NCBI GenBank assembly: GCA_964016885.1
Contig: OZ024742.1
Coordinates: 13,144,001 to 13,208,000 of the forward strand
Source of the DNA: Eledone cirrhosa
Taxonomy: Eukaryota
DNA length: 64,000 nt
Direction: 5' to 3'
This document shows, piece by piece, positions 1 to 62,000 of this stretch. Positions within the stretch are counted from its first letter, which is position 1. Every line of letters begins with the position of its first letter. The notes under the pieces are model-generated. The model was not told the DNA's origin and ran no database searches. It was given only the letters and a program-made list of their open reading frames with translations. The position numbers and the translations under genes were made by a program.

Positions 1-1860
1 AGAAGCACCCTACATAAAACTTTCCCTACGACAGAAAGCAATGATATACCTCTGTAGTTCCCACAATCGTTCCTGTTACCCTTTCCCTTGTACAAGTCCA
101 CCATTACTGCATCTCTCCAGTCCTCAGGTACGGATTCATTAGCCCATATCCTGCCAAACAAAGAATGAAGATGTTGCAGGAGTCTCTCAAAACCATATTG
201 TAGGAGCTCAGCATGTATGCTATCCATACCTGGAGATCTTCCACTGTTCAGCTTCGAAATAGCCACTGCAACCTCCACAAGCGTCGAAGGTTCTGCAAGA
301 GCTACTTTCACAGGACTTTCTGGAATGAGATTCAGGAAATCTTCACTGACGACAGACGGCTGATTCAAAAGATCATCAAAGTGCTCTCGCCACCTTCGTA
401 GAATTCCTTGTGAGTCACGAAGAAGTTCTTTGCCATCCCTGCTGCGAAGCGGTGTCATCAGAGAAGAAGACGGTCCATAAACCTCACGCAAGAGACTGTA
501 CAACAGCTTTGTGTTATTGGAATCAGACGCAGTTTGTATCTCACCAGCCTTCTCACTCCACTACTGATCCTTCATCTGAGAAAGACTCCGCCTAACACGT
601 GATTTTACATCCCTGAGTTCCTCATGCAACGTATTCCTCTCCTGTGGTTTTGCCGTCAAGTAGCGTTACAGAGCACGCCTCTTATCAGCCAACAAGTCTT
701 CTATATGTACATCATTCTCATTAAACCAGTCCTGATGTTTCCTCTGCGCCAATCCCAGAACACGCCTGCCTACATCATAAACCGACTTTTTAAGGGTCGG
801 CCAATCCTCACCAACATCTGCAGCCTGCATCTCTTCTTCCAATGTCCTATTCACATGTTTATCCTTAAGACGAGCAGCATTCAATCTTTTGGGCAGGGTA
901 ACACCAGGAACCCGGATTTTACGTTTAGTGATTAGTTTCAGTTTTGCGCGTACCAGGCGGTGGTCCGTCCAGCACTCAGTTCCACGAAGAACACGAACAC
1001 ACTGCACATCCTGTCTGTCACGCATCCTGACTAGGACGTAGTCCAAAAGATGCCATTCCTTAGATGCAGGATGCATCCATGTGGTCTTGAATTTGTTCTT
1101 TTGTTGGAACATGGTGTTGGTAACACACAGATCCAGCTCCTCACACATCTGCAGCAGGAGCATACCATTGCTGTTACACTTTCCCAGCCCATGCCTTCCG
1201 ATTACATTCCATGTGTTAAAATCCCTACCCACTCTAGCATTAAAGTCACCAAGCACGATGACTTTGTCTGCCTGAGGGATATTTCTTAAAACACCTTTCA
1301 AGGCATGGTAAAAGGACACCTTTTCCTCATCGACAGAACTCATAGTTGGAGCATACACACTCACCAGGGTAGCATATCTTCCCTTGTCCAGCGGAACTCT
1401 CATGGACATAAGACGCTCACTAATCCCTACTGGGAATTCTTCTAATTTGTTCACAAGCACAGTCTTAACAGCAAATCCTACCCCAGCCTCTCTTCTGGTT
1501 CCTTCATCTCTTCCTTTCCAGAAGAATGTATATTCTCCACAAAATTCCGTAAGATGACCATCTCCAGCTAGCCTCGTCTCAGATAAAGCCACGATGTCAA
1601 GATCGTAACGTCGAAGCTCCTTTGCAAAAAGATCGGTCCTTCGTTCAGGACGCCCCAAGGAATCCCTGTCAAGCAGCGTCCGTACGTTCCAGCAGCCAAG
1701 ACTAAATGCCTTGTTTGGCTCTATTACAATGGCACGATGACGAGCGGGCCCAGGCTGTGATAACCTGGGTCCCCTGCCCTTATTGCCAATGATCTTTTTT
1801 GTTCCAGAACCTAAATTGCCAATTATCTCTTTTATATTGTTCTGAACATCATTGAATTGG
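1..1860 (-). mobile_element. RTE-clade (BovB-like) LINE, inactivated; APE endonuclease plus start of RT, running off the window edge
   Basis: ORF 666..1901 has APE motifs (GCWNVRTL, ALSETR, GVGF, SVYAPT, LGDFNARVG, LDYVLV, TDH). The same frame continues through in-frame stops (MKDQ*WSEKAGEIQ...EVYGP). Bases ~1-135 read VPEDWRDAVMVDLYKGKGNRNDCGNYRGISLLSVVGK, the start of RT. Confidence 0.93.
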
Positions 1861-1920
1861 AAAAAAAAAAAAAAAAAAAAAAGTAATAATAATAGTAACA
1901 ATAATAATAATAATAATAAT

Positions 1921-2224
1921 AGTACACTATCAACAATTATTAATGCACTCGTGCAATGCCTGTGCGTGACAAATATTTTTAAAGTGAGGAAAGACTGTGC
2001 ACTGAGCCAATCCCACTCTCTGAGCGACAGTAGCTATAACCCGAAAAGAAGAAAAGATCAACATCATCGGTAACTACTGAGCCGCAGGTTTTATGTCGGA
2101 GTTAACCCAGTTTCCTGAGATGCCTTCTCCTAGAAGAATGCCCTGACAAGGGCTAGGGGTTCTTCACTCCCAGTGGTTTAACTGCGCGATCGGGCATCCA
2201 GCCCTATTATTTCTGTCCCCACGC
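1921..2224 (-). mobile_element. Short RTE-leader-derived element, divergent relative of the 6322-6880 element, ending in (ATT)n
   Basis: Contains the RTE 5'-leader-type motif CCTAGCCCTTGTCAGGGC...CTAGGAGAAGG. It is collinear with 6532-6735 (shared ATGATGTTGA, GAGAGTGGGA, GCACAGGCATTGC, AATAATTGT). Confidence 0.7.
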
Positions 2225-2313
2225 AAAAAAAATAAATAAATAAATACATACATACATACATACATACATACATACATACATACATACATACATACATACA
2301 TACATACATACAT

Positions 2314-5014
2314 AAGTTAGAGAGACGATTTGGAGATACAAAATTTAAAACTTTGAACTCCAAATTACACCAGTTGAAACAACAACTCACAGCTACAACA
2401 GAAAGACTAAAATATAAGGCAACAGCACATAAACAACAAGTGCTAAATAGATTGTTTGCCAGAGATCCTAAATCAGTTTATCGCAGCTTCGGTGGCAAAA
2501 GCTCAATTCCTGTAAATGACACCCCTTCAAAAGAACAGGTTCAGAGCTACTGGAGATCTGTATGGGAAACGGATGACGGATTCAACAGACAAACTAATTG
2601 GCTAAAAGAACTGGAACAGGACTACTGCCAACATGTCCAGACAAAACAATATGACATAGATGGGTCAATACTGGAAACAGCTCTGCAGAAAATGTCGAAT
2701 AGGAAATCGCCAGGCCCAGACCTCATTACAGGATACTGGTTGAAGAATTTCACTTTCTATCGGCAAGATCTCATACGGCTGTTTACAGAAAACATTAAAG
2801 GCACACAAGAACTGCCCAGATGGTTATCAACTGCCACTACTCTCCTCATTCCCAAAAATAGCCAAACCACCCTTGCTAAAAATTACCGCCCAATAGCCTG
2901 CCAAAACATCATGTATAAATTATATACTGGGTGCCTTAACCTGTTCTTACAGGATCACTGTGCTACCAACAACATCATAACACCTGAGCAAGCTGGTGGA
3001 AAGAGGGAGGTGTGGGGTTGCATAGATCACCTACTAACTAACAAAATGATTCAGGAAAAAACAACAAAGAATCGCAGAAACATGACTGTGGGATGGCTGG
3101 ACTATCAAAAAGCATTTGATAGTGTGCCTCATGGGTGGATTATTAAGGCTTTACAGTTAGCCAAAGTCCCACAACCATTGGTAGCTGCTGTTGAACGCCT
3201 GACCAAGAACTGGTACACCAATTTGATCCTTAGAGGTGAGAAGGAGCAAGTTAAGACTGATAAGATACATTACCAGAAGGGCATCTTTCAGGGTGATAGC
3301 TTGTCAGTGCTACTCTTCGTTCTCTCACTGAATCCACTATCTTACCTACTCAGGAAACAAGGTGGACAAAGAAGTGGGTCCAGAAGTATCTCCCATCTTT
3401 TCTTTGTTGATGACCTGAAGTTGTATGGGCCAAATATCAATGACATCAAGAAACAATTGGACCTCATTACACAATTTTCAACCGACATCAAAATGAAATT
3501 TGGTGAGTCAAGTGTGCATATTTGGCAGTAAAACGTGGAAGAGCTGTGCCCTCCTCTAGAAATCTAGAGATGAACGGCCTGACAATACAACCTCTACAGT
3601 CAGGTGACAACTACAGATATCTTGGACAGGATGAGAATGTCAGATATGATGGACCCATAAATAAGGAGAGAACCAGAACTGAATACCTCAGAAGAGTAAA
3701 GAAAATATGGTCATCAGAACTGTCAGCGTACAACAAATACATTGCCCACAATACTTATGCTGTGCCGATTCAAACGCCAACATTTGGCCTGCTGAACTGG
3801 TCATTGCAAGAACTAAGTGAGATGGATGTTAGAACTCGCAAACTTCTCAGTGTTACTGGGAACTTTAACACCAATGGTGATGTGGATAGGCTATACTTCT
3901 CACGCAAGGAAGGTGGCCGGGGTCTAAAATCAATATTAACAACATATGAGACCCGGATAGTAACACTGAAGTAACACCTTCAACAGAGGAAAAAGGTTGG
4001 CAACCATCTTGCCCAGGTTTATGAGCATGAAAAAAAAAATATCATTAGAATAGCGACTGATCTGGAGGAGAGATATGGAATAAAGCCTGATATAAATCTC
4101 TCATCCAGAGAAATCGGAAGATTCTAATCAATGTTCAAACAAGATAAAAGAATTGACCAATTTACAGAAAAAGTTGTGCATGGATACTTAAGACGTAAAA
4201 CACAGACCATAGAGGGGATAAACTACTCAAAAAACCTGGCATGGAGTTCCGACAAGTTTATGACATCACACCTTGAGGGATATCTCTATGCAATACAGGA
4301 ACAAGAACTCCCTACCAAATATCTGCTGCACAAAAGAGGAGGGCCAGCAGCTGACAATAAATGTAGGCTATGTAAAACAAAGATCGAGGATGTAAGCCAC
4401 ATTGTTGCCAGCTGCGAAAGAATGTCATCTCGCTACTACCTCCCCATGAGACACGATGGGATAGCTAGAACCATCTGGAACGCACTTCGGAAAACAAAAT
4501 TAACAACAAACGAGGAAGAATATATTGAGACAGATGGCACTAAGGAATACTGGTGGAACCTGAAAATAAAAACTGCCACCAAATTAAAGCACAACCGGCC
4601 TGATATTGTTGTTTGGGACCACACATTGAAAACGTGTTCTGTTGTGGAGATCAGCTGCCCACTTGTGGTAAACGTTGTCAGAAAAATACAGGAGAAGGAG
4701 GACATCTACGGACCATTGTTGAGGAGTTTACAAATCCAGTATCCAAGATACACCTCTAGCTTCATACCCATCATTATTGGTGCTACGGGTTATATACCAA
4801 CCCGCTTGGACCAAAGTATGACTGAACTTGGATTTGCGGACAAAAAGCGCAACTCCCTAATTCATAGTCTACAAATGGCTGCGATAGCTGGCACCTTCAA
4901 AATTTTAAAACATGCTTGCGATTCAAGGGATGACAATTTGTTTTCTTTTACAACCTTGCCACCAGGAAGGTGGCCGGTCAAAAAAAATGTACTTGAAATT
5001 AAGAGAAAGAGATA
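2314..5014 (+). mobile_element. R4/Dong-clade non-LTR retrotransposon, lineage A, copy 1 (5'-truncated, frameshifted)
   Basis: ORFs 2353..3531, 3522..3974 and 4131..5015 carry KSPGPD, NYRPIAC, DYQKAFDSVPH, GIFQGDSLS, FVDDLK, EGGRGL, CCHC knuckle CRLC..HIVASC, RHD and REL motif RPDIVVWD..VEISCP. Preceded by (CATA)n and followed by ACATACAT. Confidence 0.93.
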
Positions 5015-5092
5015 ACATACATATCAGAATGAAAGGTTGGAAACTCTCAAATTAGACAAATTTTGATATATTATTGTTATTTACTATCATTA

Positions 5093-5217
5093 CGATCTGA
5101 GTTCAAATCCCGCCGAGGTTGACTTTGCCTTTCATCCTTACGGGGTCGATAAAATAAAGTACCAGTAATACACTGGGATAATTGCTGGCCTTGTGCCAAA
5201 CGTAGAAACAATTATTA
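5093..5217 (+). mobile_element. tRNA-derived SINE, 5'-truncated (family S1)
   Basis: B-box GAGTTCAAATCC, core GACTTTGCCTTTCATCCTTACGGGGTCGATAAAATAAAGTACCAG and 3' end GGCCTTGTGCCAAA..TAGAAAC. About ten related copies occur in the window. From memory the core resembles the Meta-SINE domain (unverified). Confidence 0.85.
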
Positions 5218-5221
5218 TCAT

Positions 5222-5495
5222 GGCTGTTGTTGTTGTTACTGTTGCTACTGTCATTGCTGTTGCTGCTGTCGTTGGTGTTGTTGCTGTCATTGTTGTTGTT
5301 GTTGTTGTTGTTGCTGTCATTACTGTCATTGCTGTTGTTGTTGTTGTTGCTGTCATTACTGTCATTGATGTTGTTGTTGTTGCTGTTGTTGCTGTTGTTG
5401 TTGTTGCTATTGTTGCTGTTGTTACTGTTGTTGCTCTTGTTGCTGTCATTGCTGTTGTTGTTGTTGTTGTTGTTACTGTTGTTGCTGTTGTTGCT
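5222..5495. repeat. Degenerate (GTT)n/(GCTGTT)n microsatellite
   Basis: Seen directly; it produces the poly-V/L/T ORFs. Confidence 0.95.
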
Positions 5496-5882
5496 TTTTT
5501 GTCTGTTTGTGTTGTTATCAATCCAAAAGAATTATTAGTAAATTTCCTTCCTCCTTTCGTAAGAGTTCAGCATAAAAAGCCACCATTTTGTTTAGTCTTA
5601 TATTTCTTTATCCTGCAACATATTAATGGCCTCCTATATACATTTATAAGTTTTCTCTCTTATTTCTTTACCATTTTCATAGTAATCAACCTTAATTTGA
5701 AATACGTGTTCTTATTTACTACTAAGTGTGATGCTTTGTTCTATGTCGAACATGGCTTCTGTTGTGTCGCATATTTTTATTGTTTTCGGAGCGTGACTGT
5801 ATTTTGGAATGTTTTTGTTTTCTTTCCTTTTCCTATATAAATTAATGTTTCGCGGAAGTTAGACAATTCTTCTTATTATCCA

Positions 5883-5967
<85 letters not shown>

Positions 5968-6164
5968 TTCTATTCGTAAATATACAGCAAACTTAATGAT
6001 TATTAACATACATATATTCATATAAACATACATACATACATACATTTATACATATATACATACATACATTTATACATACATACATACATACATACATACA
6101 TACATACATACAAGCATACATGCATACATACATGCATGCATACATACATGCGTACATACATACA

Positions 6165-6241
6165 CGGTGACTGCCAACTCGTTTTCGTGTACGGCCACTA
6201 CTTTATATCCATGTAGGAGAACCCCTACCGATGCGCTGAAC
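6165..6241 (-). mobile_element. 3' fragment of the bipartite RTE-derived element with (TGTA)n tail
   Basis: Matches 6322-6398 (GCCAACTCGTTTTCG..GGCCACTACTTTATATCCATGTAGGAGAA..CCTACCGATGCGCTGAAC). Flanked by (CATA)n-like tracts. Confidence 0.85.
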
Positions 6242-6321
6242 ATGCAATCATATAGACATACATGCATACACACATACATACGTGCATACATACATACATG
6301 AATACACACATACATACATAC

Positions 6322-6880
6322 ATGGTGGCTGCCAACTCGTTTTCGAGTATGGCCACTACTTTATATCCATGTAGGAGAACTCCTACCGATGCGCTGAACG
6401 AATGTGACTTTAGTCCAGCCAACGACTTGAAAACTCTGGTACAAACACTACACTTGTGACAATTATTGACACATAGTGCTAGGCCCATGGTACCATGTGA
6501 CGACAAGTGCAGAGAGATCTCCAGATACAAAGCAATGCCTGTGCCGTGAAGCTTTTATAGTGAGCAAAGGCACTGCACAAAGCCAGTCCCACTCTCTTAA
6601 CCAAGATGATATTTACCAAAAGGAAGAACAAGTCAACATCATTGGATACCATCAGGGTTGCAGGTGTTATATCAGAGTTTTCCTTCTCCTAGAATTCTGC
6701 CTTGACAAAGGCTAAGGGGTCATCTCTCCTGGTGATTTTGGATGGCCATTGACTCTTAAGAGCTCCTTTGCCCTTTGACAGGTTTTGTTTTTAGTCCTGC
6801 AGGATGTCCAAAGTCACCCTCCTCACCAAGAAACCTTAGTGGGGTTGCCAGTTTAGTCGCCAACGACCCGACCATGGGAC
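6322..6880 (-). mobile_element. Bipartite non-autonomous RTE derivative (~560 bp): 5' leader fused to 3' end, (TGTA)n tail
   Basis: 5' part has TAGCCTTTGTCAAGGC..CTAGGAGAAGGAAAACTCTGA. 3' part encodes a C2H2-like remnant CSVCTRVFKSLAGLKSH, as seen at RTE ORF C-termini, then hairpin CTCG-AAAA-CGAG and CACCA(TGTA)n. Confidence 0.8.
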
Positions 6881-6951
6881 ATACATACATACATACATAC
6901 ATACATACATACATACATACATACATACATACATACATACATACATACATA

Positions 6952-7489
6952 CATGGTGGCTGTCAACTCGTTTTCGAGTACGGCCACTACTTTATATCCA
7001 TGTAGGAGAACCCCTACCGATGCGCTGCACGAGTGTGACGTTTTAGTCCAGCCAGCGACTTGAAAACTCTGGTACAAACACTACATTTGTGACAATTATT
7101 GATACATAGTGCTGGGCTCATGGTACCATGTGACGACAAGTGCAGAGAGATCTCCAGATATAAAGCAATGCCTGTGCCGTGAAGCTTTTATAGTGAGCAA
7201 AGGCACTGCACAAAGTCAGTCCCACTCTCTTAACCAAGATGATATTTACCAAAAAAGAAGAACAAGTCAACATCATTGGATACCATCAGGGTTGCAGGTG
7301 TTATATCTCATGGTCGGGTCGTTGGCAACTAAACTGGCAACCCCACCAAGGTTTCTTGGTGAGGAGGGTGACTTTGGACATCCTGCAGGACCAAAAACAA
7401 AACCTGTCAAAGAGTCAATGGCCATCCAAAATCACCGGGAGAGATGACCCCTTAGCCTTTGTCAAAGCAGAATTCTAGGGGAAGGAAAA
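6952..7489 (-). mobile_element. Second copy of the bipartite RTE derivative with an inverted 5' segment
   Basis: 6952-7307 matches ~6322-6673 in the same orientation. 7309-7489 is the reverse complement of ~6678-6876. Confidence 0.85.
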
Positions 7490-7571
7490 AAACATACATA
7501 CATACATACATACATACATACATACATACATACATACATACATACATACATACATACATACATACATACAT

Positions 7572-8600
7572 AGGAAAAAGGTTGGCAACCATCTTGCCCA
7601 GGTTTATGACCATGAAAAAAGAAATATCATTAGAATAGCGACTGATCTGTAGGAGAGATATGGAATAAAGCCTGATATAAATCTCTCACCCAGAGAAATC
7701 GGAAGATCCTATTCAATGTTCAAACAAGATAAAAAAATTGACCAATTTACAGAAAAAGTTGTGCATGGATACTTGAGGTGTAAAACACAGACCATAGAGG
7801 GGATAAACCACTCAAAAAGCCTGGCATGGAGTTCCGACAAGTTTATGACATCACACCTTGAGGGATATCTCTATGCAATACAGGAACAAGAACTCCCTAC
7901 CAAATATCTGCTGCACAAAAGAGGCGGGCCAGCAGCTGACAATAAATGTAGGCTATGTAAAACAAAGATCGAGGATGTAAGCCACATTGTTGCCAGCTGC
8001 GAAAGAATGTCATCTCGCTACTACCTCCCCATGAGACACGATGGGATAGCTAGAACCATCTGGAACGCACTTCGGAAAACAAAATTAACAACAAACGAGG
8101 AAGAATATATTGAGACAGATGGCACTAAGGAATACTGGTGGAACCTGAAAATAAAAACTGCCACCAAATTAAAGCACAACCGGCCTGATATTGTAGTTTG
8201 GGACCACACATTGAAAACGTGTTCTGTTGTGGAGATCAGCTGCCCACTTGTGGTAAACGTTGTCAGAAAAATACAGGAGAAGGAGGACATCTACGGACCA
8301 TTGATGAGGAGTTTACAAATCCAGTATCCAAGATACACCTTTAGCTTCATACCCATCATTATTGGTGCTACGGGTTATATACCAACCCGCTTGGACCAAA
8401 GTATGACTGAACTTGGATTTGCGGACAAAAAGCGCAGCTCCCTAATTCATAGTCTACAAATGGCTGCGATAGCTGGCACCTTCAAATTTGCAAAACATTC
8501 TTGCGATTCAAGGGATGACAATTTCTTTTCTTTTACAACCTTGCCACCAGGAAGGTGGCCGGTCAAAAAAATATGCTCGAAATTAAGAGAAAGAGAAAAC
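7572..8600 (+). mobile_element. R4/Dong-clade lineage A, copy 2 (3' ~1 kb)
   Basis: Near-identical to 3987-5014 (ORF 7716..8762, CCHC + REL). (CATA)n lies directly upstream and ATACATACATAC directly downstream. Confidence 0.93.
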
Positions 8601-9496
8601 ATACATACATACATATATACATATAACACAGTCAACGCGATCAGTCGCATATTTTGGCGTGGGAGACTATTTATTAAATTTAAGATGAATACTATCTCCG
8701 GCAGTAATGCCACAATTACAGTTATGTTGAATAACTGGTTTTCTTCTAACTGTATCTTCTAAGAAACCTTTTATTCGAATTCGTAGAGATATTCGACTAA
8801 ATACATAATTCATTTTACAAGGATTTGCTACAAACAGCATGGCTGAACACAACATCAACAAAATTAAGGAGGTATCGAAAGGTAAACAAACTTTATTCAG
8901 TTGTAGCTACAAAAGAAACCGAAATTATAAATCACATTTCTCTTGGACTTGCGAACTTAATGATGATTTATTTAATTGTTATAAAATGGCAAAAAACAAT
9001 CCCTCCATTGGCTATATGAATAAAATGAAGCTACACTGGGACGAAATGCACCTAGAGCTAAATTACGCCAACAAGCGCCAACAAGCGACGTTTGTTGAAC
9101 GTAAAAATGAGATAAATATTATTAATTATAAGTCCCCCACAACACATGGGATCAACAACACGTGCTACAGGTCGCCATGCTACTAGACTTCCTAGCAGCT
9201 AGGTTGAACAGCGCCTTGAAACAACTATGCCTGTAAGAAACTTGACACCGCCTGTACCATCTAAGTCTACCCTCGAATGCTGGGAAAACACTATCGATAA
9301 TAATAATAATGGAAGAAATTTGACACCACGTGTACCATCCGAGTCTACCTCAACTGTTGTGGAAAATACTATCGATAATGATAATAATCAAAAGTATAAA
9401 CAATTGAAAATTTCCCTCAACGAAATCTTCCAGAGAGAAATGAATTGATGTATAAATATCTCTCTTGCTGAACGTATTAAAACGACACCCTTGCCA

Positions 9497-9613: not shown

Positions 9614-11159
9614 TATTTAATAAAAAACAAATAATGAATTATTACGTGTTATTGGCGAAATAGGGGATGAATATTTACGACGGATATTTACAACATTTTG
9701 GCAAATCAACGCCTGTTTATATGCCTTAGCAACGACAGTGAAGCATTATCTTGGTGATAGCAGAGATATTAACAGAGAGTACCCTTGAGACTATGATAGG
9801 AAAACTCCAAGATAAGAAAACACCAGGAAGAGACTTGATTGTCGGCTACTGGTACAAAAAACTGAAATTCTATCGGAGGTATCTTACTGACCTCTACCAA
9901 CAAGTTCTTAAGGGAGATACACTTATACCAGAATGGTTGAAATTAGCACAAACATTACTGGTCCCCAAGAACAAAGACACCCACTTGGCAAAAAACTACC
10001 GACCCATTGCATGCCACAACCTGATGTATAAGATGTATACAGCCTGCCTGAACCTATTCCTCCAAGATCACTGTGAAAATAATAACATCATCACAGATGA
10101 ACAAGCAGCTGGAAAGAAAGGGGTTTGGAGATGTATTGAACAACTCCTAATCAACAAAACTGCGATGTCGGACGTGCGAGAACTTAGGAGGAATATGGCT
10201 ACAGTCTGGCTGGACTACAGGAAAGCTTTCGATTCTGTTCCCCACTCTTGGATGATAGAGGCCCTCCAACTTGCTAAAGTCCCAGACATTATTGTCAGAG
10301 CAATAGAGAAGCTATCTTCTTCTTGGGCTACCATCCTAAGGTTAAAGACAGAGAGGGAGGACTCTATTTTCACTGATAAAATAAAATATCACAGGAGTAT
10401 ATTTCTGGGAGACAGTCTCTCTATGATATTGTTCATCTTGTCATTAAACCCCTTGTCCTTTCTGCTCAAGAAATGTGAGGGATACATCATTGGCTCACAG
10501 GAGGACAGAAATACGAACCTAACTCATAATTTCTTGGTGGACAATCTGAAACTATGCCAAGATCATGGATGGGATGAAGAAAATCTTGACCTGGTTACAA
10601 CGTTCTCAAAGGATATCGGAATGGAGTTTGGCCAAGATAAATGCTCATACATGACTCTAAAGCGGGGAAAACAAAAACCCAATCTAGCAACATTGTCATC
10701 AATGGCCTAACTGTTTCGCCAATAATCTGATGATGACTGCTACAGATACCTGGGGATAGATGAGAACATATCCTATAATGGTATCTGTAATAAGGAACGC
10801 GTAACCAGGGAATACTACACCCGATTAAGAAAGATTCGGTCATCGGAACTCTCTGCGCAAAACAAAACAGTGGCTCACAATGTGTTTGCTGTGCCTGTCC
10901 TAACACCAACGTTTGGAATACTCAATTCGACGATAGACGAAATCCGAGCCGTTGATGTTGGAACTCGAAAAATAGTAAACAACACCGGAAACTTCCACAT
11001 CAACAGTGACATAGACCGCCTTTACTTGAAACATAAGCAGGGAGGCAGAGGCCTAACATCAGTCCAGACAGCATTTGAATGTCCCATCATATCCCTCCGA
11101 CAACTTCTACGAACCTCGAAGCGTAGGAGCCTGTCTCTCGAGCAAGTCTATCTGCATGA

Positions 11160-14250: not shown

Positions 14251-14618
14251 ATACATACATACATACATACAATCATACATACATACATACATACATACAT
14301 ACATACATACATACATACAATCATACATACATACAAACATACATACATACATACATACATACATACATACATACATACATACATACATACATACATACAT
14401 ACACACATGCTTATAGAAGGAGAGTAGATACTCCTCAAACTATAGCCACCTGTCTATTTATGAAGTTCGATCTCTGAAGACCATTGATTGATTATTTAGT
14501 TATTATATTACATCACTATCACTAATGACATGCAATGGTATAAATCTCTTACTGCACATTTGTAGTTGTCATCAATATCGATTATTGTATATACAGTATC
14601 GATAAATGGACAGATAAT

Positions 14619-17600
14619 GTGGTGGTTATGTGGTGGTGGTGGTGGTGTTGGTGGTGGTGGTGGTGGTGGCGGTGGTGGTGGCGGTGGTGGTGGTGGTGTG
14701 CTGTGGTGGTGGTGGTGGTGGTGGTGGTGTTGGTGGTGGTGGTGGTGGTGGCGGTGGTGGTGGTGTGCTGTGGTGGTGGTGGTAGTTGTGGTGGTGGTGG
14801 TGTGGTGGTGGTGGTGGTGGTGGTGGTGTGCTGTGGTGGTGGTGGTGGTGGTGGTGGTGGTGTGCTGTGGTGGTGGTGGTTGTGGTGGTGGTGGTTGTGG
14901 TGGTGGTGGTGTGGTGGTGTTGAGGTGATGGTGGTATTGGTGTTGGTGGTGGTGGTGGTGGTGGTATTGGTGGTGGTGGTGGTTGTGGTATGGTGGCGGT
15001 GATGGTGGTGTTGGTGGTGGTGTTGTTGTGTGATGGTGATGGTGGTGGTGGCGGTGGTGGTGTGGGGGTTGTGGTGGTGTTGGTGGTAGTGGTGATGGTA
15101 ATGGTGGTGTGGTGGTGTGGTCGTGGTGGTGGTGGTGGTAGTGTGGTGGTGGTGGTGGTGTGGTAGTGGTGGTGATGGTGATGGTGGTGTGGTGGTGTGG
15201 TGGCGGATGTTGTGGTGGTGGTGTGGTGGTGGTGATGGTGCTGGTAGTGTGGGGGTGTGGTGGTGTGGTAGTATGGTGGTGGTGGTGGTGGTGGTGGTGG
15301 TGGTAGTGGTAGTGGTGGTGGTGGTTGTGGTGAGGTGGTGGTGGTGGTGTTGGTGGTGGTGGTTGTGGTGTGGTGGTGGTGGCGGTGGTGGTGGTGGTGT
15401 GCTGTAGTGGTGGTGGTGGTGGTGGTGGTGGTTGTGGTGGTGGTGGTGCGGTGGTGGTGGTGGTGAGGTGGTGGTGATGGTAATGGTGGTGTGGTGGTGT
15501 GGTCGTGGTGGTGGTGGTGGTGGTGTGGTGGTGGTGGTGGTGTGGTAGTGGTGGTGATGGTGATAGTGGTGTGGTGGTGTGGTGGCGGATGTTGTGGTGG
15601 TGGTGTGATGGTGGTGGTGGTGTGCTGGTGGTGATGGTGCTGGTAGTGTGGTGGTGTGGTGTTGTGGTAGTATGGTGGTGGTGGTGGTGGTGGTGGTGGA
15701 GGTGGTGGTAGTGGTGGTGGTGGTTGTGGTGAGGTGGTGGTGGTGGTGTTGGTGGTGGTAGTGGTGGTGGTTGTGGTGTGGTGGTGGTGTTGGTGTGGTG
15801 GTGTGGTGGTGTAGTGGTGGTGGTTGCGGTGGTGGTGGTGGTGGTGGTGGTGGTGGTGTTGGTGTGGTGGTGCGGTGGTGTGGTGGTGGTGTGGTGGTGG
15901 TGGTGGTGGCGTTGTTGGTGTGGTGGTGGTGGTGGGTGTGGTGTTGTGGTTGTGGTGGCGATGTTGTTGGTGGTGTTGCTGTGGTGGCGTGGTGTTGGTG
16001 GTGGTGGTGGTGTTGGTGCTGGTGGTGGTGGTGGTGGTGGTGGTGGTGTGGTGTTGGTGGTGGTGGTGTGGTGGTGGTAGTGGTGGTGGTGGTGGTGTTG
16101 TTGGTGATGGTGGTGGTGGTTGTGGTGTGGTGGTGGTGGTGGTGTGGTGGTCGCGGTGGTGGTTGTGGTGAGATGGTGGTGGTGGTGGTGGTGGCAGTGG
16201 TGGTGGTGGTTGTGGTGTGGTGGTGGTGGTGGCGATGTTATTGGTGGTGGTGGTGTGTTGGTGTGGTTGTGTGGTGGTGGTGGTGGTGGTGGTGGTGGTG
16301 ATGGTTGTGGTGTGGTGTTGGTGGTGGTGTTGGTGTTGGTGGTGGTGGTGGTTGTGGTGTAGTGGTGGTGTTGGTGGTGCTGGTGGTGGTGGTTGTGGTG
16401 TGGTGGTGGTGGTGGTGGTGGTGGTGGTGGTGGGAGTGGTGGTGTTTGTGGTGGTGTGGTGTTGGTAGTGGTGTTGGAGGTGTTGGTGTGGTGGTTTCTT
16501 GTGGTGTCGTGGTGGTGGTGGTGTGGTGGTGTTGAGGTGATGGTGGTATTGGTGTTGGTGGTGGTGGTGGTGGTGGTATTGATGGTGGTGGTGATTGTGG
16601 TATGGTGGCGGTAATGGTGGTGTTGGTGGTGGTGTTGTTGTGTGATGGTGATGGTGGTGGTGGCGGTGGTGGTGTGGGGGTTGTGGTGGTGGTGGTGGTA
16701 GTGGTGGTGGTGGTGGTGGTGGTGGTGGTGGTGGTGGTGGTGGTGGTGATGGTGGTGGTGGTGGTGGTAGTTGTGGTGGTGGTGTGGTGTTGCGGTGCTG
16801 TGGTGGTGGTGGTGGTTGTGGTGTGGTGGTGGTGGTGTGGTGGCGGCGGTGGTTTGGTGGTGGTGTGGTGGTGGTGGTGGTGGTTATGCTGGTGGTGCGG
16901 GGCTGTGGTGGTGCTGGTGGTTGCGGTCGTGGTGGTGGCGGTGGTGTTGTTGTTGGCGGTGGTGGTGGTCATGTGGTGGTGGTGGTGGTGTGGTGGTGGT
17001 GTGCTGTAGTGGTGATGGTGCTGGTAGTGTGGTGGTGTGGTGTTGTGGTAGTATGGTGGTGGTGGTGGTGGTGGTGGTGGTGGTGGTGGTGGTGGTAGTG
17101 GTGGTGGTGGTTGTGGTGAGGTGGTGGTGGTGGTGTTGGTGGTGGTAGTGGTGGTGGTTGTGGTGTGGTGGTGGTGTTGGTGTGGTGGTGTGGTGGTGTA
17201 GTGGTGGTGGTTGCGGTGGTGGGGGTGGTGGTGGTGGTGGTGGTTTGGTGTGATGGTGCGGTGGTGTTGTGGTGGTGTGGTGGTGGTGGTGGTGGCGTTG
17301 TTGGTGTGGTGGTGGTGGTGGGTGTGGTGTTGTGGTTGTGGTGGCGATGTTGTTGGTGGTGTTGCTGTGGTGGCGTGGTGTTGGTGGTGGTGGTGGTGTT
17401 GGTGGTGGTGGTGGTGGTGGTGGTGGTGGTGGTGGTGGTGGTGGTGTGGTGTTGGTGGTGGTAGTGGTGGTGGTGGTGGTGGTGGTGGTGGTGGTGGTGG
17501 TGGTGGTGGTGGTGGTGATAGTGGTGGTGGTGGTGGTGTTGTTGGTGATGGTGGTGGTGGTTGTGGTGTGGTGGTGGTGGTGGTGTGGTGGTCGCGGTGG

Positions 17601-20255
17601 TGGTTGTGGTGAGATGGTGGTGGTGGTGGTGGTGGTGGTGATGGTGGTGGTGGTGGTGGTGGTAGTTGTGGTGGTGGTGGTTTTGTGGTGGTGGTGGTGG
17701 TGTTGCCGGTGGTGGTGTGGTGGTGGTGTTGGTGGTGGTGGGTGTGGTGTGGTGGTGTGGTGGTGTGGTGGTGGTGGTGGTGGTGGTGGTAGTGGTGGTG
17801 GTGGTGGTGGTGTGGTGTTGGTGGTGTGGTGGTGGTGGTGGTAGTGGTGGTGGTGGTGGTGTTGTTGGTGATGGTGGTGGTGGTTGTGGTGTGGTGGTGG
17901 TGGTGGTGTGGTGGTCGCGGTGGTGGTTGTGGTGAGATGGTGGTGGTGGTGGTGGTGGTGGTGATGGTGGTGGTGGTGGTGGTGGTGGTGGTGGTAGTTG
18001 TGGTGGTGGTGGTTTTGTGGTGGTGGTGGTGGTGTTGCCGGTGGTGGTGTGGTGGTGGTGTTGGTGGTGGTGGGTGTGGTGTGGTGGTGTGGTGGTGTGG
18101 TGGTGGTTGTGGTGGTGGTGGTGGTGGTAGTGGTGGTTGTGGTATGGTGGTAGTGGTGGTGTTGGTGGTGGTGGTGGTGGTGGTGTGGTGGTGGTGGTGT
18201 GGTGGTGCTGGTGGTGCTGGTGGTGCTGGTGCTGGTGGTGTGTGGTGGTGGTTGTGATCTGGTTGTCGTTGCGGTGGTGGTGGTGGTGTGGTGGTGTTGG
18301 TGGTGGTGGTGGTGGTGGTGGTGTGGTGGTGGTGGTGGTTGTGGTGAGATGGTGGTGTTGGTGGTGGTGGTGGTGGTGGTTGTGGTGTGGTGGTGGTGTG
18401 GCGGTGGTGGTGGTCGTCGTGGTGGTGGTGTTGTTGGTGGTGGTGGTCGTGGTGTGGTGGTGGTGGTGTTGGTGGTGGTGTGTTGTTGGTGCTGGTGCTG
18501 GTGTGGTGGTGGTAGTGGTGGTGGTGGTGGTGGTGGAGGTGGTGGTGGTGGTGGTGGTGTGGTGGTGTTGGTGGTGGTAGTGTTGGTGTGGTGGTGGTGG
18601 TTGTGGTGAGATGGTGGTGTTTGTGGTGGTGTTGGTGGTGGTTGTTGTGTGGTGATGGTGGTGGTGTTGGTGGTGGTTGTGGTGTGGTGGTGGTGTGGTG
18701 GGGGTGGGGTGGTCGTGGTGGTAGTGTTGTTGGTGGTGGTGGTCGTGGTGTGGTGGTGTTGGTCGTGGTGGTGGTGTTGTTGGTGGTGGTGGTCGTGGTG
18801 TGGTGGTGGTAGCGGTGGTGGTGGTGGTGGTTGTGTTGGTGGAGGTGGTGGTGTGGTGTTGGTGGTGGTGGTGTGGTGGTGGTAGTGGTGGTGGTGGTGG
18901 TGTTGTTGTTGTTGGTGGTGGTGGTTGTGGTGTGGTGGTGGTGGTGGTGGTGGTGTGGTGGTCGCGGTGGTGGTTGTGGTGAGATGGTGGTGATGGTGGT
19001 GGTAGTGGTGGTGGTGGTTGTGGTGTGGTGGTGGTGGTGGCGATGTTATTGGTAGTGGTGGTGTGTTGGTGTGGCTGTGTGGTGGTGGTGGTGGTGGTGG
19101 TGGTGATGGTTGTGGTGTGGTGTTGGTGGTGGTGTTGGTGTTGGTGGTGGTGGTGGTTGTGGTGTAGTGGTGGTGTTGGTGGTGGTGGTGGTGGTGGTGG
19201 TTGTTGTGTGGTGGTGGTGGTGGTGTTGGTGGTGGGAGTGGTGGTGTTTGTGGTGGTGTGGTGGTGGTGGTGGTGGAGGTGTTGGTGTGGTGGTGTGGTG
19301 GTGGTTGTGGTGTCGTGGTGGTGGCGGTGTTGGTGGTGGTGGTGGTGTTGTTGTGTTGTCGTGTGGTGATGTGGTGGTGGTGGTGGTGGTGTCGGTGATG
19401 GTTGTGGTGTGGTGGTGGTGGTGTTGGTGGTGGTGGTTGTTGTGGTGTAGTGGTGGTGGTGGTAGGGGTGATGGTGGTGGTGGTGGTGGTGGTAGGGGTG
19501 ATGGTGGTGGTGGTGTTGGTGATGGTTGTGGTGTGGTGGTGGTGGTGTTGGTGGTGGTGTTTGTTGTGGTGTGGTGGTGGTGGTGGTGGTAGGGGTGATG
19601 GTGGTGGTGGTGGTGGTAGGGGTGATGGTGGTGGTGGTGGTGGTGGTGCTGGTGGTGGTGGTGGTGTGGTGGTGGTGGTTGTGGTGGTGGTGGTGGTGGT
19701 GTGGTGGTGGTGGTGGTGGTGCTTTTGGTGTTGGTGGTGGTGGTGGTAGTTGTGGTGTGGTGGTGGTGGTGGTGTGGTGGTGTTGGTGGTGGTGGTGGTG
19801 GTGGTGTGGTGGTGGTGGTTGTGGTGAGATGGTGGTGTTGGTGGTGGTGTTGGTGGTGGTTTGTGGTGTGGTGGTGGTGTGGCGGTGGTGCTGGTTGTCG
19901 TGGTGGTGGTGTTGTTGGTGTTGGTGGTCGTGGTGTGGTGGTGGTGGTGGTGTTGGTGGTAGTGGTGTGGTGTTGGTGGTGGTGCTGGTGTGGTGGTGGT
20001 AGTGGTGGTGGTGGTGGTGTTGGAGGTGGTGGTGGTGGTGGTGGTGGTGGTGGTTGTGGTGTGATGGTGGTGGTGGTGTGGTGGTGTTGAGGTGATGGTG
20101 GTATTGGTGTTGGTGGTTGTGGCGGTGGTGGTGTGGTGGTGGTGGTGGTGGTGGTGTGGTGGTGATGGTGGTGGTGGTGTTACTGGTGGTGGTGGTGTTA
20201 CTGGTGGTGGTGGTGGTGGTGTTACTGGTGGTCTGGGGGTGGTGGTGGTGGTGTC
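14619..20255. repeat. ~5.6-kb degenerate (GGT)n/(GTGGT) satellite
   Basis: Seen directly, with recurring variant blocks such as GGTCGCGGTGGTGGTTGTGGTGAGATGG. It is the source of the poly-V/W/G and poly-T/P/H ORFs. Confidence 0.97.
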
Positions 20256-20384
20256 TGCGGTGAGGTTGGAGGGAGGTGGTGTGGAGTATTTTATAAGTTT
20301 CACTTCGTTAACTCTTTCAAATCATGACTGCATCAATATGTCTCGCAAGTTGTCAATAAAACGATGTCTAATGAGTGGAAAGGT

Positions 20385-24085: not shown

Positions 24086-27000
24086 TTATTATTATTATTA
24101 TTATTATTATTGTTGTTATTCCTTGAATCTCAGTCATTGATGTTGGTTAACTGGAAAGTCCATTGGATTGAATATCAAGCCACTACCTGCAGCCTCAGAT
24201 ATTCAGGACGTATCGGAGGGTTCTTGCTGTTCCAAGCAAGCATGCCTTTTGAAGCGTTCCAAAAAGCGTGAAGGGGCCGATTTTCTTTAACCATCCCTGG
24301 AAACTTTTGGAGATAGTCCCCAGTGCGCCTATGACAATCGGGATCACTTTGACTTCATGGCAGTTCCAGATCCTTTTCACCTCCCACTTTAGGTCCTGGT
24401 ATCGGTTAATTTTCTCCCTCTCCTTCTCTTGCACTCTCGTGTCGAACGGGCAGGCCACATCCACAATCAGACACGATCTTTTTTCTTTGTCCACAACCAC
24501 CAGGTCAGGTCTATTGTGTTCCAGTTTTTTGTCCGTCTGTATCCTAAAATCCCACAGCACCTTCACCTGATTGTTCTCCATCACCGCCTCTGGCCTATGC
24601 TCATACCATTTCTCAGAATGTGGTAAATTGTTTACTTTGCACAGGTGCCAGTGGATCACCCTGCCCATCACATCGTGTCTCCAGCCCTTATAGTGGGTCT
24701 GGGCTAGGTGTTTACACTCGGACACAATGTGAGCCACAGTCTCCTCTCTCTCTCCACAGATCCTGCACAGTGGGCTAGCCTCCTCCTTGTAAATGTGATG
24801 CTTCAACCACTTCGTTTTGAGGGCCTGCTCCTGCGCAGCCATTAGCATTCCTTCTGTAGCCTTTTTGAGGTCTCCTCTTCTCAACCAGTTCCATGTCTGT
24901 GGATCTCTAAATTCAGTTTTCTCAAAGAAGGTACTATGAAGGGATTTTCCCTTAAGGCTGCTCTTCCTCCTTGATGTTATTTCCTCCTTGGACATCCCCT
25001 GGCCTACTGTCCCCTCCTTCAGTACAGTTCTGAGCATTGGCTCCTTACTATAGGTCACGTATTTGTATAGGTTGTTTTTCTCCATCTGAACACAGTCCTC
25101 TATGCTGATAAGACCTCTTCCACCCTCAGATCTCCTTAGGTAGAGTCTATCGACATCACTCCTCTTGTGGAACATGTTGTAGATAGTCAATAGCTTCCTA
25201 GTCTTCCTATCCATTTCTTTTTGTTCAGCAACATTCCATCTCAGAATTCCCGCACTGTACCTAATAATAGACACAGCTCGGGAATTTACTGCGCTTATGG
25301 CATTTCTGCTGTTCAGATGTGACTTCAATACGCTCCTTACTCTCCGAATGTATTCAGTTCTTAACAATTCCTTCATTTTTTTGTTCTTTATGCCATCAGC
25401 CTCCAGAACGCCCAAATACTTGTATCCTTCCTCAGAGTCAATTTCCTTTATCATCTCACCTGTTGGTATCTGGATCCCGTTACTTCTGCTCAACCTACCC
25501 CTCTTCATCACAATGACTCCACATTTACCAATACCAAACTGCATACATATATCACTGCTGAAAATACGGAGAGTGTCAACAAGCACATCCAACTCCTTCT
25601 CACTTTTCCCGAAGAGCTTAAGATCGTCCATGAAGAGGAGGTGATTGATGGTAAGCTCTCCCCTTCCCAACTTGTATCCTGCTCTCACTTTTCGCAGCAT
25701 AATGGTCAAGGGCATCAGGGCAAGGACAAACAACAGAGGGGACAGGCTATCTCCCTGGAAGATACCTCTCTTGATCTTCACGCTTCCCAAGGATACTCCA
25801 GTTGATGTCAACTCTGTCTCCCAGGACCCCATACTCCTGCCTAGCAACTGTCTGATGTTATCTGCCACCTTGAAGATCTCCAGGCTTTTGGTGATCCAGG
25901 AATGGGGCACCATGTCAAATGCCTTTCTGTAGTCTATCCATCCCATGGCAAGATCAGTGTGTCTCCTCCTGCAATTCCCCATTACCATCTTATCAATAAG
26001 CAACTGGTCCTTTGTACCACGTGACTTCTTTCGGCATCCTTTCTGTTCGTCCGGTAACAAGTTGTTTGTGTGGAGGTGATGGTAGATTTCCTCAGACACA
26101 ATGCTCGTCAACAGTTTCCACATTACGGACAGACATGTGATAGGTCTATAGTTGGTAACATCATTACCCTTGATTCGGTCTTTCATTATCAGAACTGTGG
26201 TACCTTTTGTCAACCACTCTGGCACCTCACCCGACACCAAGCAGTCATTGAACATGGCCGTCAGCTTCGGGTGGAGGGATGTTAAATGTTTAATCCAATA
26301 CCCCTGCACACCATCTGGGCCTGGTGATTTCCAGTTGGTTAGTTTTTTGGCCTGCCCCTTAAGAGTTTCAACTGTGATACTCAACTCAGTTTGTTGTTGT
26401 GCCTGCTCACCGATCTCCCTCTGTACTGTCTCAATCCACCCTGCCTGGGCATTGTGTCTAACATCCTGCTCCCATATTCCTCTCCAGAATGTTTTAGTTT
26501 GCTCCGCCCCAGGGATCAAGTCGTTGCCTCTTTCTTTCCCCTCAAGCTGTCCAAACAGCATCTTCTGGTTGTTGTCGAACATGCGATTCTGTTTATACTG
26601 ACTGACTCTGTTCTCGTATCGCCTGATTTTTGCACTCTTTGCTACAATGCGTTGCTTCAGTTCCTCTATGATAATATTTAGCTTTTTACTCCTAGTTTTG
26701 TATTTTATTTCCAGTCTATTTTTAGTGCCTATGTTTTTTAGTGTCCCATTCAGTAGTGACTCAAGCTTTCCTATGTCATTTCTCATTTCCCCGATTTGCC
26801 CACTCAGTCGCTTCTTCCACCACGGCTCTGCTCTTTCTTGTCTGTTGTTTCCTCTCGCTTTTATACCAAGTAGTTTCCTCACCGTATTTGCTGTTGCTTT
26901 AAGGATATTGTTGCACTGGTGAAGGCTCCTCGCCTCAAGGTATGGGATGACTTTGTTTACCTTAGCTGTTGTTTCTTTTAACTTTTTCCTGTCTACAAAT

Positions 27001-27750
27001 CTTAGGTTCATAGGTCTCCCACTATCATTGTTCAATTCATCTACCACTAAATTTAGGATGTCAACCGAATCTTGTCCTAGCCCGTCAGCATTCATCTCCT
27101 CAGTGGCCGTATCTCTGTTCCAGGTATTATTTATCTCAGTATTCAGATCATTGTCTGCTTCGGGTGGTTCCTCCGTTCTCAGGACCTCTTCACCTTCATT
27201 TCCCACTGGCTCGCTTGTCTGGCATACTACACCCGCCATCTCCAAGCCATTCTCTCTGCTCAGTTCCTCCAGTTCCAGCTCGCTTATCCATCCATTAGTT
27301 CTTATTACCCGAGCCTGCCCGGCCAATTTTTGTTCATCTAATTTAAATAAACCAATCTCGTTCCAGATGTTATGCATCCGTCTCCTGTAGCCCCTCTCCT
27401 TGGGGTTACTTTTCAGGTAACATTGCATAACAGTTCTATTCAATTCTTTCGTCCAGTTGGTTCTGGCCCCTTTCCTTCTTCTCCTTCCTCCAACATCAGC
27501 AGTATTTGGTTGACAGTCAGGTTCCTGCTGCTGAGCCAGGGGGCACCTGTTGGGTGAGAGTCTGTCACATGACGTTCTAGACTCCATTTCACCGTTATTC
27601 GAACTGTTTATGTTCGATATTTAAACACTCTTATCGAGGATTGGCAAATGTATGGTTACATATCCATCTGTGGATCCGCCATTCCACTTGGCCCTTGTGT
27701 GGCATTATCACCACGCTGTATACGAACACACATAAACAAACAAACACACA
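24086..27750 (-). mobile_element. R4/Dong-clade lineage C, apparently full-length, ending in (AAT)n; 5' boundary uncertain
   Basis: Single intact ORF, 74-nt 3' UTR beginning GGCTGCAGGTAGTGGCTTG, then (AAT)n at 24086-24120. Confidence 0.9.
24195..27587 (-). CDS. Intact 1130-aa R4/Dong-type polyprotein: N-terminal domain, reverse transcriptase, CCHC knuckle, restriction-like endonuclease
   Basis: ATG start and no internal stops. Motifs WKSPGPDG, NYRPITCL, EQKGC, DYRKAFDMVPH, GIFQGDSLSP, LFMDDLK, YKYLG, EGGRGL, CRICGEREETVAHIVSEC, RHD, RPDLVVVD..IVDVACP..EK..RY. Confidence 0.95.
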   Translation of the reverse strand: MESRTSCDRLSPNRCPLAQQQEPDCQPNTADVGGRRRRKGARTNWTKELNRTVMQCYLKSNPKERGYRRRMHNIWNEIGLFKLDEQKLAGQARVIRTNGWISELELEELSRENGLEMAGVVCQTSEPVGNEGEEVLRTEEPPEADNDLNTEINNTWNRDTATEEMNADGLGQDSVDILNLVVDELNNDSGRPMNLRFVDRKKLKETTAKVNKVIPYLEARSLHQCNNILKATANTVRKLLGIKARGNNRQERAEPWWKKRLSGQIGEMRNDIGKLESLLNGTLKNIGTKNRLEIKYKTRSKKLNIIIEELKQRIVAKSAKIRRYENRVSQYKQNRMFDNNQKMLFGQLEGKERGNDLIPGAEQTKTFWRGIWEQDVRHNAQAGWIETVQREIGEQAQQQTELSITVETLKGQAKKLTNWKSPGPDGVQGYWIKHLTSLHPKLTAMFNDCLVSGEVPEWLTKGTTVLIMKDRIKGNDVTNYRPITCLSVMWKLLTSIVSEEIYHHLHTNNLLPDEQKGCRKKSRGTKDQLLIDKMVMGNCRRRHTDLAMGWIDYRKAFDMVPHSWITKSLEIFKVADNIRQLLGRSMGSWETELTSTGVSLGSVKIKRGIFQGDSLSPLLFVLALMPLTIMLRKVRAGYKLGRGELTINHLLFMDDLKLFGKSEKELDVLVDTLRIFSSDICMQFGIGKCGVIVMKRGRLSRSNGIQIPTGEMIKEIDSEEGYKYLGVLEADGIKNKKMKELLRTEYIRRVRSVLKSHLNSRNAISAVNSRAVSIIRYSAGILRWNVAEQKEMDRKTRKLLTIYNMFHKRSDVDRLYLRRSEGGRGLISIEDCVQMEKNNLYKYVTYSKEPMLRTVLKEGTVGQGMSKEEITSRRKSSLKGKSLHSTFFEKTEFRDPQTWNWLRRGDLKKATEGMLMAAQEQALKTKWLKHHIYKEEASPLCRICGEREETVAHIVSECKHLAQTHYKGWRHDVMGRVIHWHLCKVNNLPHSEKWYEHRPEAVMENNQVKVLWDFRIQTDKKLEHNRPDLVVVDKEKRSCLIVDVACPFDTRVQEKEREKINRYQDLKWEVKRIWNCHEVKVIPIVIGALGTISKSFQGWLKKIGPFTLFGTLQKACLLGTARTLRYVLNI

Positions 27751-40672: not shown

Positions 40673-40675
40673 CAG

Positions 40676-54786: not shown

Positions 54787-54946
54787 ATCTAAGAAAAGAA
54801 AACCTAAACAATATAGTTAGGAATGTCTTTTAGTCTTTGTTCTCTTTTGAAAAGACCATAATTAATAAGATTGTTGCATGAAAGCTGGGTACAATAGAAA
54901 TATTGAGATAAACTGAGACACACAAAGGACTGATACAGAGACACGC

Positions 54947-55080
<134 letters not shown>

Positions 55081-61525: not shown

Positions 61526-62000
61526 GCACAGACACACACATATATATATATATGTATATATCAATGCATTCCTATCCATAATTCCCATAAATCAGACGGT
61601 AAGTAGCTATGTACCAATCCACTTCCTTTGAGACCAATACCGACATCTTCCTACGTAGCTCTCCCACAAAATAAACTCATGTGGTAATTATATGCTACTA
61701 AAACATGTTGATTGGAACAACACATCTAGAATCCGGTGGAAACTAAGGTTGAGAAAGAATTCTAATTTATCTGTCTTAAAGTGAGGTTTCTTTGGAACAT
61801 TTATATTTGGGGTGGTGCATCTAAGAGGATCTGTAATGAATTTGTCTTGATGCCCAGGCGGTTTAATTAGGAAATATTAGTAATAATGTATCAAGGTTGT
61901 CTGCAGTTTAACGGAAGCCGCCATTGCATACGGAATGTTTTTTCTATGAAAGCAAAGCAAATAAATAAATACGCATACATACATACACACACACACATAC

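Follow-up and report, generated by a model that had tools for sequence, protein, structure and literature searches.

The 64,000-nucleotide (nt) window studied here (Eledone cirrhosa, contig OZ024742.1, positions 13,144,001 to 13,208,000) holds copies of the 5′ leader of RTE retrotransposons. We found that these leaders contain a conserved, folded and probably pseudoknotted RNA domain; its pairing is maintained down to ∼40% identity, both across five subfamilies of this genome and among RTE leaders found on metagenome contigs. Full-length copies of non-autonomous relatives start, in addition, with a ∼60-nt fold that matches most features of the flavivirus class-1a exoribonuclease-resistant RNAs (xrRNAs). 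This xrRNA-like head is the more surprising of the two results and lies mostly outside the window.

Leader Copies in the Window and Their Families

A preliminary description, made from the letters of the window, had reported two divergent RTE 5′ leaders on the minus strand. The stems that it named are indeed present in both copies and lie where it had placed them. Copy 1 proved to be the leader of a long interspersed nuclear element (LINE), whereas copy 2 is a non-autonomous derivative with no open reading frame (ORF). The features are as follows, with subelement positions in the order of the minus strand.

1853..2230, minus strand: copy 1, proximal 5′ leader of the autonomous RTE LINE family A, including an (ATT)n/poly-T spacer ahead of the ATG
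2117..2153, minus strand: copy 1, module 1, consisting of hairpin 1 (GCCCT-TGTC-AGGGC, 2153-2140) and the CTAGGAGAAGG element; matches the Ceph-domain 3′ half/conserved RTE 5′ untranslated region (UTR)
2020..2087, minus strand: copy 1, long bulged stem with an internal GAC/GTC-type stem-loop (arm from 2079); evidence from swap test, pair counts, and G-test
1959..2017, minus strand: copy 1, 3′ hairpin AGTGGGA/CTCACT (2017-1983) with GTGC loop (2002-1999) and downstream GCAC (1965-1962), a probable H-type pseudoknot
1..1852, minus strand: RTE ORF, apurinic/apyrimidinic endonuclease (APE) then reverse transcriptase (RT), leaving the window at its edge and interrupted by stops in this copy (Pfam Exo_endo_phos, E 3.5e-12)
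6325..6881, minus strand: copy 2, 5′-truncated bipartite non-autonomous RTE of family B, with leader modules, last ORF codons, and 3′ tail
6538..6712, minus strand: copy 2, structured domain (hairpin 1, 6712-6699; long stem, 6663-6599, arm from 6653; 3′ hairpin, 6593-6559; GTGC loop, 6578-6575; GCAC, 6544-6541)
6867..6881, minus strand: copy 2, residual xrRNA-like head comprising the end of P1, the conserved U, and the 3′ strand of PK2, with ∼50 nt of the head missing as judged against full-length copies
6336..6347 in copy 2 and 6967-6978 in copy 3, minus strand: RTE 3′-tail hairpin CTCGAAAACGAG ahead of (TATG)n
6951..7307, minus strand: 3′ part of copy 3 (family B), which carries the long stem, 3′ hairpin, and tail and shares 95.5% identity with copy 2 (model match E 1e-19)
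7306..7489, plus strand: copy 3, inverted 5′ part, likewise without the head; the inversion would fit twin priming

Copies 1 and 2 are 68% identical across 229 columns. Only copy 1 heads a protein-coding RTE LINE; in the fragment of its ORF within the window, Pfam scored APE and did not score RT. Copies 2 and 3 are short leader-plus-tail derivatives, copy 2 being a ∼555-nt element that ends in the RTE tail and (TATG)n and has no ORF downstream.

Searches of the 3.0-Gb genome placed copy 1 in a family, A, with at least 1,816 candidates and copy 2 in a second, B, with at least 3,762. The same APE-endonuclease ORF start lies downstream in 19 of the 30 best family A copies, and 13 of the 20 longer family A loci carry the RTE tail motif with TATG or TA repeats behind it. 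Thus, the family of copy 1 carries a genuine LINE leader. The ∼600-nt family B has the leader and tail hairpin in common with family A and keeps the C-terminal zinc-finger codons of the ORF, with no coding capacity. A profile search of loci yielded 204 distinct near-full cores, which form five clusters of 50, 45, 40, 34, and 28 members (families A, B, E, D, and F, respectively; 7 unplaced). Families B, D, E, and F end in the RTE tail and contain no ORF, and family C, related and non-coding, has an A-type core. By their bipartite design and leader similarity, the copies are predicted to belong to the RTE clade.

Some family A copies (L002, L003, L012, L017, and L022) have in common an upstream stretch, rich in repeats and several hundred bases long, whose start varies and which is absent from the window copy. 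The family A master copy may behave as if read from an external promoter and left untrimmed. In family B, an AUU directly after the pseudoknot opens a ∼50-codon frame that runs to the zinc-finger codons and natural stop of the LINE (copy 3, 7169-7014, minus strand). This frame may be due to chance, since families D, E, and F stop within 15 codons.

Pairing Is Maintained as the Leader Domain Diverges

Three parts make up the domain: the hairpin module, the long bulged stem, and a further hairpin, with a loop able to pair with downstream sequence. Metagenome contigs, scanned with a sequence pattern, yielded 56 further loci. Of these, 40 also satisfied a separate criterion applied to the 105 nt upstream, and an APE match lies downstream of the domain in 21 of the 56. 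Support for the long stem is strong. Among 17 families of less than 80% identity, cognate arms of this stem paired with −13.1 kcal/mol and swapped arms with −6.5 kcal/mol (permutation p<1e-4), and the inner helix, the GAC/GTC stem, and the 3′ inner stem gave p values of 1e-4 to 4e-3 in the same test. In a sequence-only alignment of 22 metagenomic loci and 5 sequences from this genome, 85.3% of cells were paired compared to 77.4% in shuffles, with double changes at 15 of 31 pairs, the structure scored in these counts having been drawn from the same sequences. The covariation score of this alignment was 0.307, a value reached by 0 of 500 shuffles, versus 0.08 to 0.13 with slid partners. A tree-aware G-test on a model-fitted alignment (25 of 42 matches) found 4 of 26 pairs significant, 3 of these in the long stem. 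Hairpin 1 occurs as five distinct, fully paired 5-bp stems across the five subfamilies. RNAfold returned hairpin 1, the long stem, and the 3′ hairpin for copy 1, and the long stem alone for copy 2. The swap test, the pair counts, and the five versions of hairpin 1 bear out the earlier claim that pairing was kept while the sequence diverged.

Pairing of the GTGC loop of the 3′ hairpin with the downstream GCAC is moderately supported. Counted by motif, because five rows from this genome are two columns out of register in the alignment loop, the central pair is C-G in 14, T-A in 8, T-G in 2 (one of which, L180, is really C-G, mis-picked by the script), and broken in 1 (25 of 26 sequences). The T-A version is found in this genome and, independently, in L207; by eye, RTE-1_MD likewise has T-A. 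The pseudoknot is absent from the fitted model, and its loop side was set by the search pattern while its downstream side was free. The loop is often self-complementary, being TGCGCA in most families and GTGCAC in family A (e.g., 2002-1997), and could also permit kissing dimers; the matched downstream change favors the pseudoknot. Of the two pseudoknots proposed in the preliminary description, the GTGC/GCAC pairing thus draws support from the central-pair swaps, and the other, between the TGTC loop and GAYA, is unsupported: it forms in just three of the five subfamilies, depends on G-U pairs, lacks compensatory changes, and fails to pair in the remaining two.

Several results weigh against the conserved fold. 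A negative control, one of three run in the swap test, reached p 0.0045 on a difference of just 1.4 kcal/mol, indicating that relatedness inflates the p values of this test. On the sequence-only alignment, a tree-aware all-against-all G-test gave no pair at E<0.05, and RNAalifold recovered the 3′ hairpin alone. Both methods missed the long stem, the variable arms of which are out of register in that alignment. A swap test of the wider pseudoknot window gave p 0.13, compared to p 0.012 for its core alone. Finally, folding energy was not below that of shuffles (z −0.46 for copy 1 and +0.82 for copy 2); hence, the support for the fold comes from covariation and not from energy.

The Domain in Other Animals

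The sequence of the domain was already known and its structure appears to be undescribed. Passages of Kojima 2018 (PMC5786205) report an RTE 5′-UTR domain as a conserved sequence, describe the bipartite design of LINE 5′-UTR plus 3′-tail for RTE, and speculate that the conserved sequence binds transcription regulators. The elements treated there (Ceph-domain 3′ half, WALLSI1/1A, MAR4_MD, RTE-1_MD, RTE-3_PM, RTE-1/2_NV, and RTE-2_CTe) resemble ours in leader-plus-tail design and, by eye, in module 1 and the long-stem/3′-hairpin region; the likeness drawn in those passages is one of sequence only, and they do not describe a secondary structure, covariation, or pseudoknot for the domain. In a by-eye comparison with the supplement of that paper (PMC5786205), the counterpart of module 1 is the Ceph-domain 3′ half, and that of the long stem and 3′ hairpin is found in the RTE leaders; the marsupial WALLSI1/MAR4 retain the same domain stretch. 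Similar bipartite elements (L207/L214) come from a metagenome contig. From Repbase name suffixes, we take the hosts of the published RTE leaders to be sea anemone, annelid, lamprey, coelacanth, turtle, alligator, and opossum.

A literature search, whose reach did not extend to Ruminski 2011, Gogolevsky 2008, Kojima Supplementary Fig. S4, or patents, found no paper describing the structure of the domain. The Rfam search called for in the preliminary description likewise gave no family matching the domain (E≤5 for the window, E≤10 for L033, and E≤2 for 20 metagenomic loci, with none in seven further loci).

In RTEs of other animals (L172, L188, L193, L210, L211, and others), a conserved short ORF with a QVLWRW motif lies 20-330 nt past the domain. 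In-frame stops recur between this ORF and the endonuclease frame, which suggests a non-canonical start of the main ORF.

Proposed Role of the Domain

The domain, located at the 3′ end of RTE leaders, may be a cis handle, required by the RTE protein complex for RNA uptake and copying, a proposal that we judge to be evenly poised between right and wrong. The complex would recognize the folded leader domain, take up the RNA, and copy it; in coding elements, the fold directly ahead of the first ORF may also aid the start of translation. Compensatory changes are retained in subfamilies that encode no protein. Such elements have nothing to translate, and we infer that selection acted on their RNA during mobilization; that protein-less families keep the domain favors recognition over a role resembling that played by internal ribosome entry sites (IRESs). 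In RTE-1_MD gene-writer templates, the payload is placed between cognate UTRs and the protein is supplied in trans. As predicted from the sequence evidence, a cis-handle role is likely, binding and mobilization being its conjectural part. Three observations count against it. The compensatory changes could date from the coding ancestors of each non-autonomous family. Ceph-SINEs hold module 1 alone and WALLSI the downstream domain alone, according to passages of PMC5786205, and so neither part is universally required. In 16 of the 42 metagenomic loci, moreover, an AUG comes after the pseudoknot strand, as a role in translation would have it.

That role, which we hold to be possible and clearly the less probable of the two, is that of an IRES-like element whose pseudoknot would position ribosomes at the first ORF of RNAs that lack a cap, with the non-autonomous elements keeping it by descent or for ribosome docking. 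RNAs made by a ribozyme or exonuclease carry no cap, and a twister ribozyme increased reporter output from an RTE leader (PMC8501958). The ATG in the 16 loci (several from one clade) starts 4 nt past the 3′ strand of the pseudoknot and is in frame with the conserved short ORF in 8 of the 13 where that ORF was located. However, the other 26 loci show ATC, ACG, ACA, ACT, or AAC in its place, and the phase to the short ORF is 0, 1, and 2 in 12, 8, and 4 loci, respectively. In family A the ATG is ∼110 nt off, beyond a microsatellite of variable length, and families D, E, and F reach a stop in 2-15 codons. IRESs of the hepatitis C virus type have a pseudoknot next to the start codon, and the domain resembles them in this placement; it differs in having no Rfam IRES match, an AUG that is unconserved here, and retention in non-coding elements. 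The recognition and translation roles are not exclusive and may coexist.

Conservation at the DNA level, in the form of an internal RNA polymerase II (Pol II) promoter or transcription-factor sites as speculated in Kojima 2018 (passages of PMC5786205), is improbable. Unvarying blocks such as AGAGAGTG and CTCACT (both also part of the search pattern) would suit it, and internal promoters also yield uniform 5′ ends, but the arms of the long stem are free in sequence yet complementary, and the domain sits 200-400 nt into the elements. That the domain is a novel kind of self-cleaving ribozyme, an idea from the preliminary description that we do not retain, has the slimmest chance of all. Ribozymes are common in RTE leaders according to passages of PMC5786205 and PMC8501958, and the domain combines a pseudoknot with invariant unpaired residues. 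Against this, Rfam gave no ribozyme match. In addition, full-length copies retain 200-400 nt upstream, so that the domain does not set the 5′ end. A hepatitis delta virus (HDV) ribozyme descriptor had 0 matches in five stretches of this genome, in agreement with the earlier remark that no canonical HDV fold could be fitted, and HDV-like folds are separate upstream modules where they occur, in L193, L199, and L209. The cis-handle reading also has a relative in R2, whose 5′-RNA pseudoknot is bound by the R2 protein (passages of PMC12222951); R2 is of a different clade with a restriction-like endonuclease.

The HDV-like folds of L193, L199, and L209 are plausible, lie ∼350-450 nt upstream of the domain, and went undetected by Rfam. 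The descriptor, which is permissive, matched 5 of 11 metagenomic leaders, with 0-1 matches in shuffles. Twister and hammerhead ribozymes were rejected for the leaders of this genome by eye and by Rfam.

An xrRNA-like Head at the 5′ End of Non-autonomous Copies

With a query lacking the head, 21 of 30 family B copies ran ∼50 nt further to a common start, preceded by unrelated or microsatellite sequence. The head occupies the exact 5′ end in families B, C, D, and E (e.g., L033:1447-1512), and families A, which is coding, and F are without it. None of 30 position-ordered heads precedes an ORF within 1.5 kb, and no coding element with a head was found. The window's own copies are truncated and lack the full head, which was therefore invisible in the preliminary description. 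An exact head pattern matched 12,627 times in the genome versus 0 for the reversed control. A descriptor, written after the head had been seen, gave 51 matches in 1.54 Mb, 49 of which are heads, and none in shuffles; no head was found in the 211 kb of loci from metagenomes.

Features were counted in 90 full-length heads of 122 matches, a share inflated by two head-containing queries, and compared with subclass 1a criteria drawn from passages of PMC8374639, PMC8571300, PMC7603331, and PMC12081666. The three-way junction of helices P1, P2, and P3 is 89-99% paired in the 90 heads and is given by the minimum-energy fold. P2 differs between subfamilies in a compensatory manner, with double changes at 3 of its 4 pairs. 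The first pseudoknot, PK1, is 2 bp (G-C in 83/90 and U-A in 20/20), invariant, and without covariation. A single C in the junction between P2 and P3 (J2/3) is present in 84/90 heads, and the bases of the U-A-U triple, as bases only, in 87/90, 88/90, and 89/90. The second, PK2, pairs loop L3 with the strand past P1 over 4 bp (90-98% paired), with no covariation at the subfamily level. As regards a possible reverse A-U ring-closing pair, the U after P1 is found in 90/90 heads and one A of L3 is invariant, but the base adjacent to this A is A in families C, D, and E and T in family B. A hairpin, outside these counts, lies downstream of PK2.

The 5′ boundary of the common sequence lies 3-4 nt upstream of the PK1 G, blurred by 1-2 nt at TA-rich targets. 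In 76 heads, the bases upstream of this G are T, A, and T (72, 62, and 70 heads), followed by flank, with TTAT in 17 of 76 versus 0.3 elsewhere. Class 1 xrRNAs stop Xrn1 four nucleotides upstream of PK1 (passages of one of PMC8374639, PMC8571300, PMC7603331, and PMC12081666). On the head in L033, Rfam model RF01415 (Flavivirus_SLIV) scored 25.0 bits (E 0.057), below its gathering cut-off of 54.5, and a second Rfam scan found three heads at 22.8-23.5 bits in one of seven loci and missed the six others.

A transfer RNA or RNA polymerase III (Pol III) origin of the head was rejected, as 5 loci contained no tRNA and 4 elements had neither an A box nor a B box (≤3 mismatches allowed for the latter); internal T-runs are present in 3 of the 4 elements examined for Pol III features. 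An xrRNA-like pattern had 2 matches in viral contigs, which were discarded as unpaired and without an Rfam match. The pattern of a variant from other animals had 0 matches in this genome. L060 holds a copy with an inverted duplicate of the head (near 1470 and 2097).

Interpretation of the Head

We propose, as a reading with an even chance of holding, that an animal retroelement family of more than 12,000 copies begins with a working flavivirus-type xrRNA. Host 5′-3′ decay would trim it from Pol II transcripts in the way subgenomic flavivirus RNA is formed, a flavivirus may have been the source of the head, and the downstream fold would be a pan-animal domain for translating or copying uncapped RTE RNAs. 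Specifically, the RNA of families B, C, D, and E would be trimmed from host Pol II transcripts by a 5′-3′ exoribonuclease that would stall at the head, thereby setting the 5′ end of the element. The stall would serve in place of the HDV-like or twister ribozymes of other RTEs. We put the predicted function of the head as a nuclease block at about even chances from its sequence.

Only somewhat less probable is a chance or fossil resemblance, such as the end of a subgenomic RNA once taken over from a virus, or a start site of Pol II, with no exonuclease block. The 25 bits from Rfam are far under 54.5 and the second scan reached one locus of seven, the head is nearly invariant outside P2 so that pairing there carries no covariation signal, and L3 is ∼two bases longer than in Zika virus (ZIKV; by our own numbering). 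The autonomous family A and the 211 kb of metagenomic loci have no head, and an internal promoter would equally give uniform 5′ ends. Arguing for more than resemblance, the 2-bp PK1, the U-A-U triple bases, the J2/3 C, P1-P3, and the 4-bp PK2 are all present together; P2 changes are compensatory between subfamilies; the boundary falls 3-4 nt upstream of the PK1 G; and neither a tRNA nor an A or B box was found. Compared with flavivirus subclass 1a xrRNAs (RF01415; ZIKV xrRNA1 and Murray Valley encephalitis virus xrRNA2), the proposed xrRNA has the same three-way junction, PK1, P2/P3 C, U-A-U bases, PK2, downstream hairpin, and boundary. It differs in lying at the 5′ end of a genomic retroelement and not in a viral 3′ UTR, in its sub-cut-off score, longer L3, and uncertain ring-closing A, and in that its resistance is predicted only.

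The HDV-like and twister ribozymes of RTE, R2, and Ingi elements (Ruminski 2011 as cited in passages of PMC5786205; PMC8501958) are like the head in their 5′-end position and in release from a co-transcript, which for the head is proposed. They self-cleave, whereas the head would stall an exonuclease, and none of these folds was found in the leaders of this genome; the leader domain, for its part, is a separate module downstream. A literature search, mostly at the level of titles apart from passages of PMC12397905 and PMC12222951, gave no report of an xrRNA from a retroelement or from an animal genome.

Other Elements of the Window

The RTE copies are nested at TATG repeats among other non-LTR (long terminal repeat) elements, presumably of the restriction-like endonuclease type, in which Pfam identified RT and zf-RVT and which include an open frame of 1141 codons.

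2236-5015, plus strand: other non-LTR element
7568-8762, plus strand: other non-LTR element
9742-10710, plus strand: other non-LTR element
24195-27620, minus strand: other non-LTR element

Long, strand-skewed, low-complexity arrays at 14500-20300, 40000-55000, and 61900-64000 are the source of many spurious ORFs.

Implications

Why RTEs, unlike most LINEs, retain part of the 5′ UTR in their non-autonomous offspring is posed as an open question in the literature (passages of PMC5786205). A structure backed by covariation makes this retention testable helix by helix, and the same domain stretch is found in RTE-1_MD, whose UTRs serve RNA-only gene-writing templates. The abstract of a 2021 review anticipates xrRNAs in cellular RNAs; a high-copy retroelement that starts exactly with a class-1a fold would supply an example. 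If the prediction is true, stalling of an exoribonuclease would be a third route, beside promoters and ribozymes, by which the 5′ end of a retrotransposon is set.

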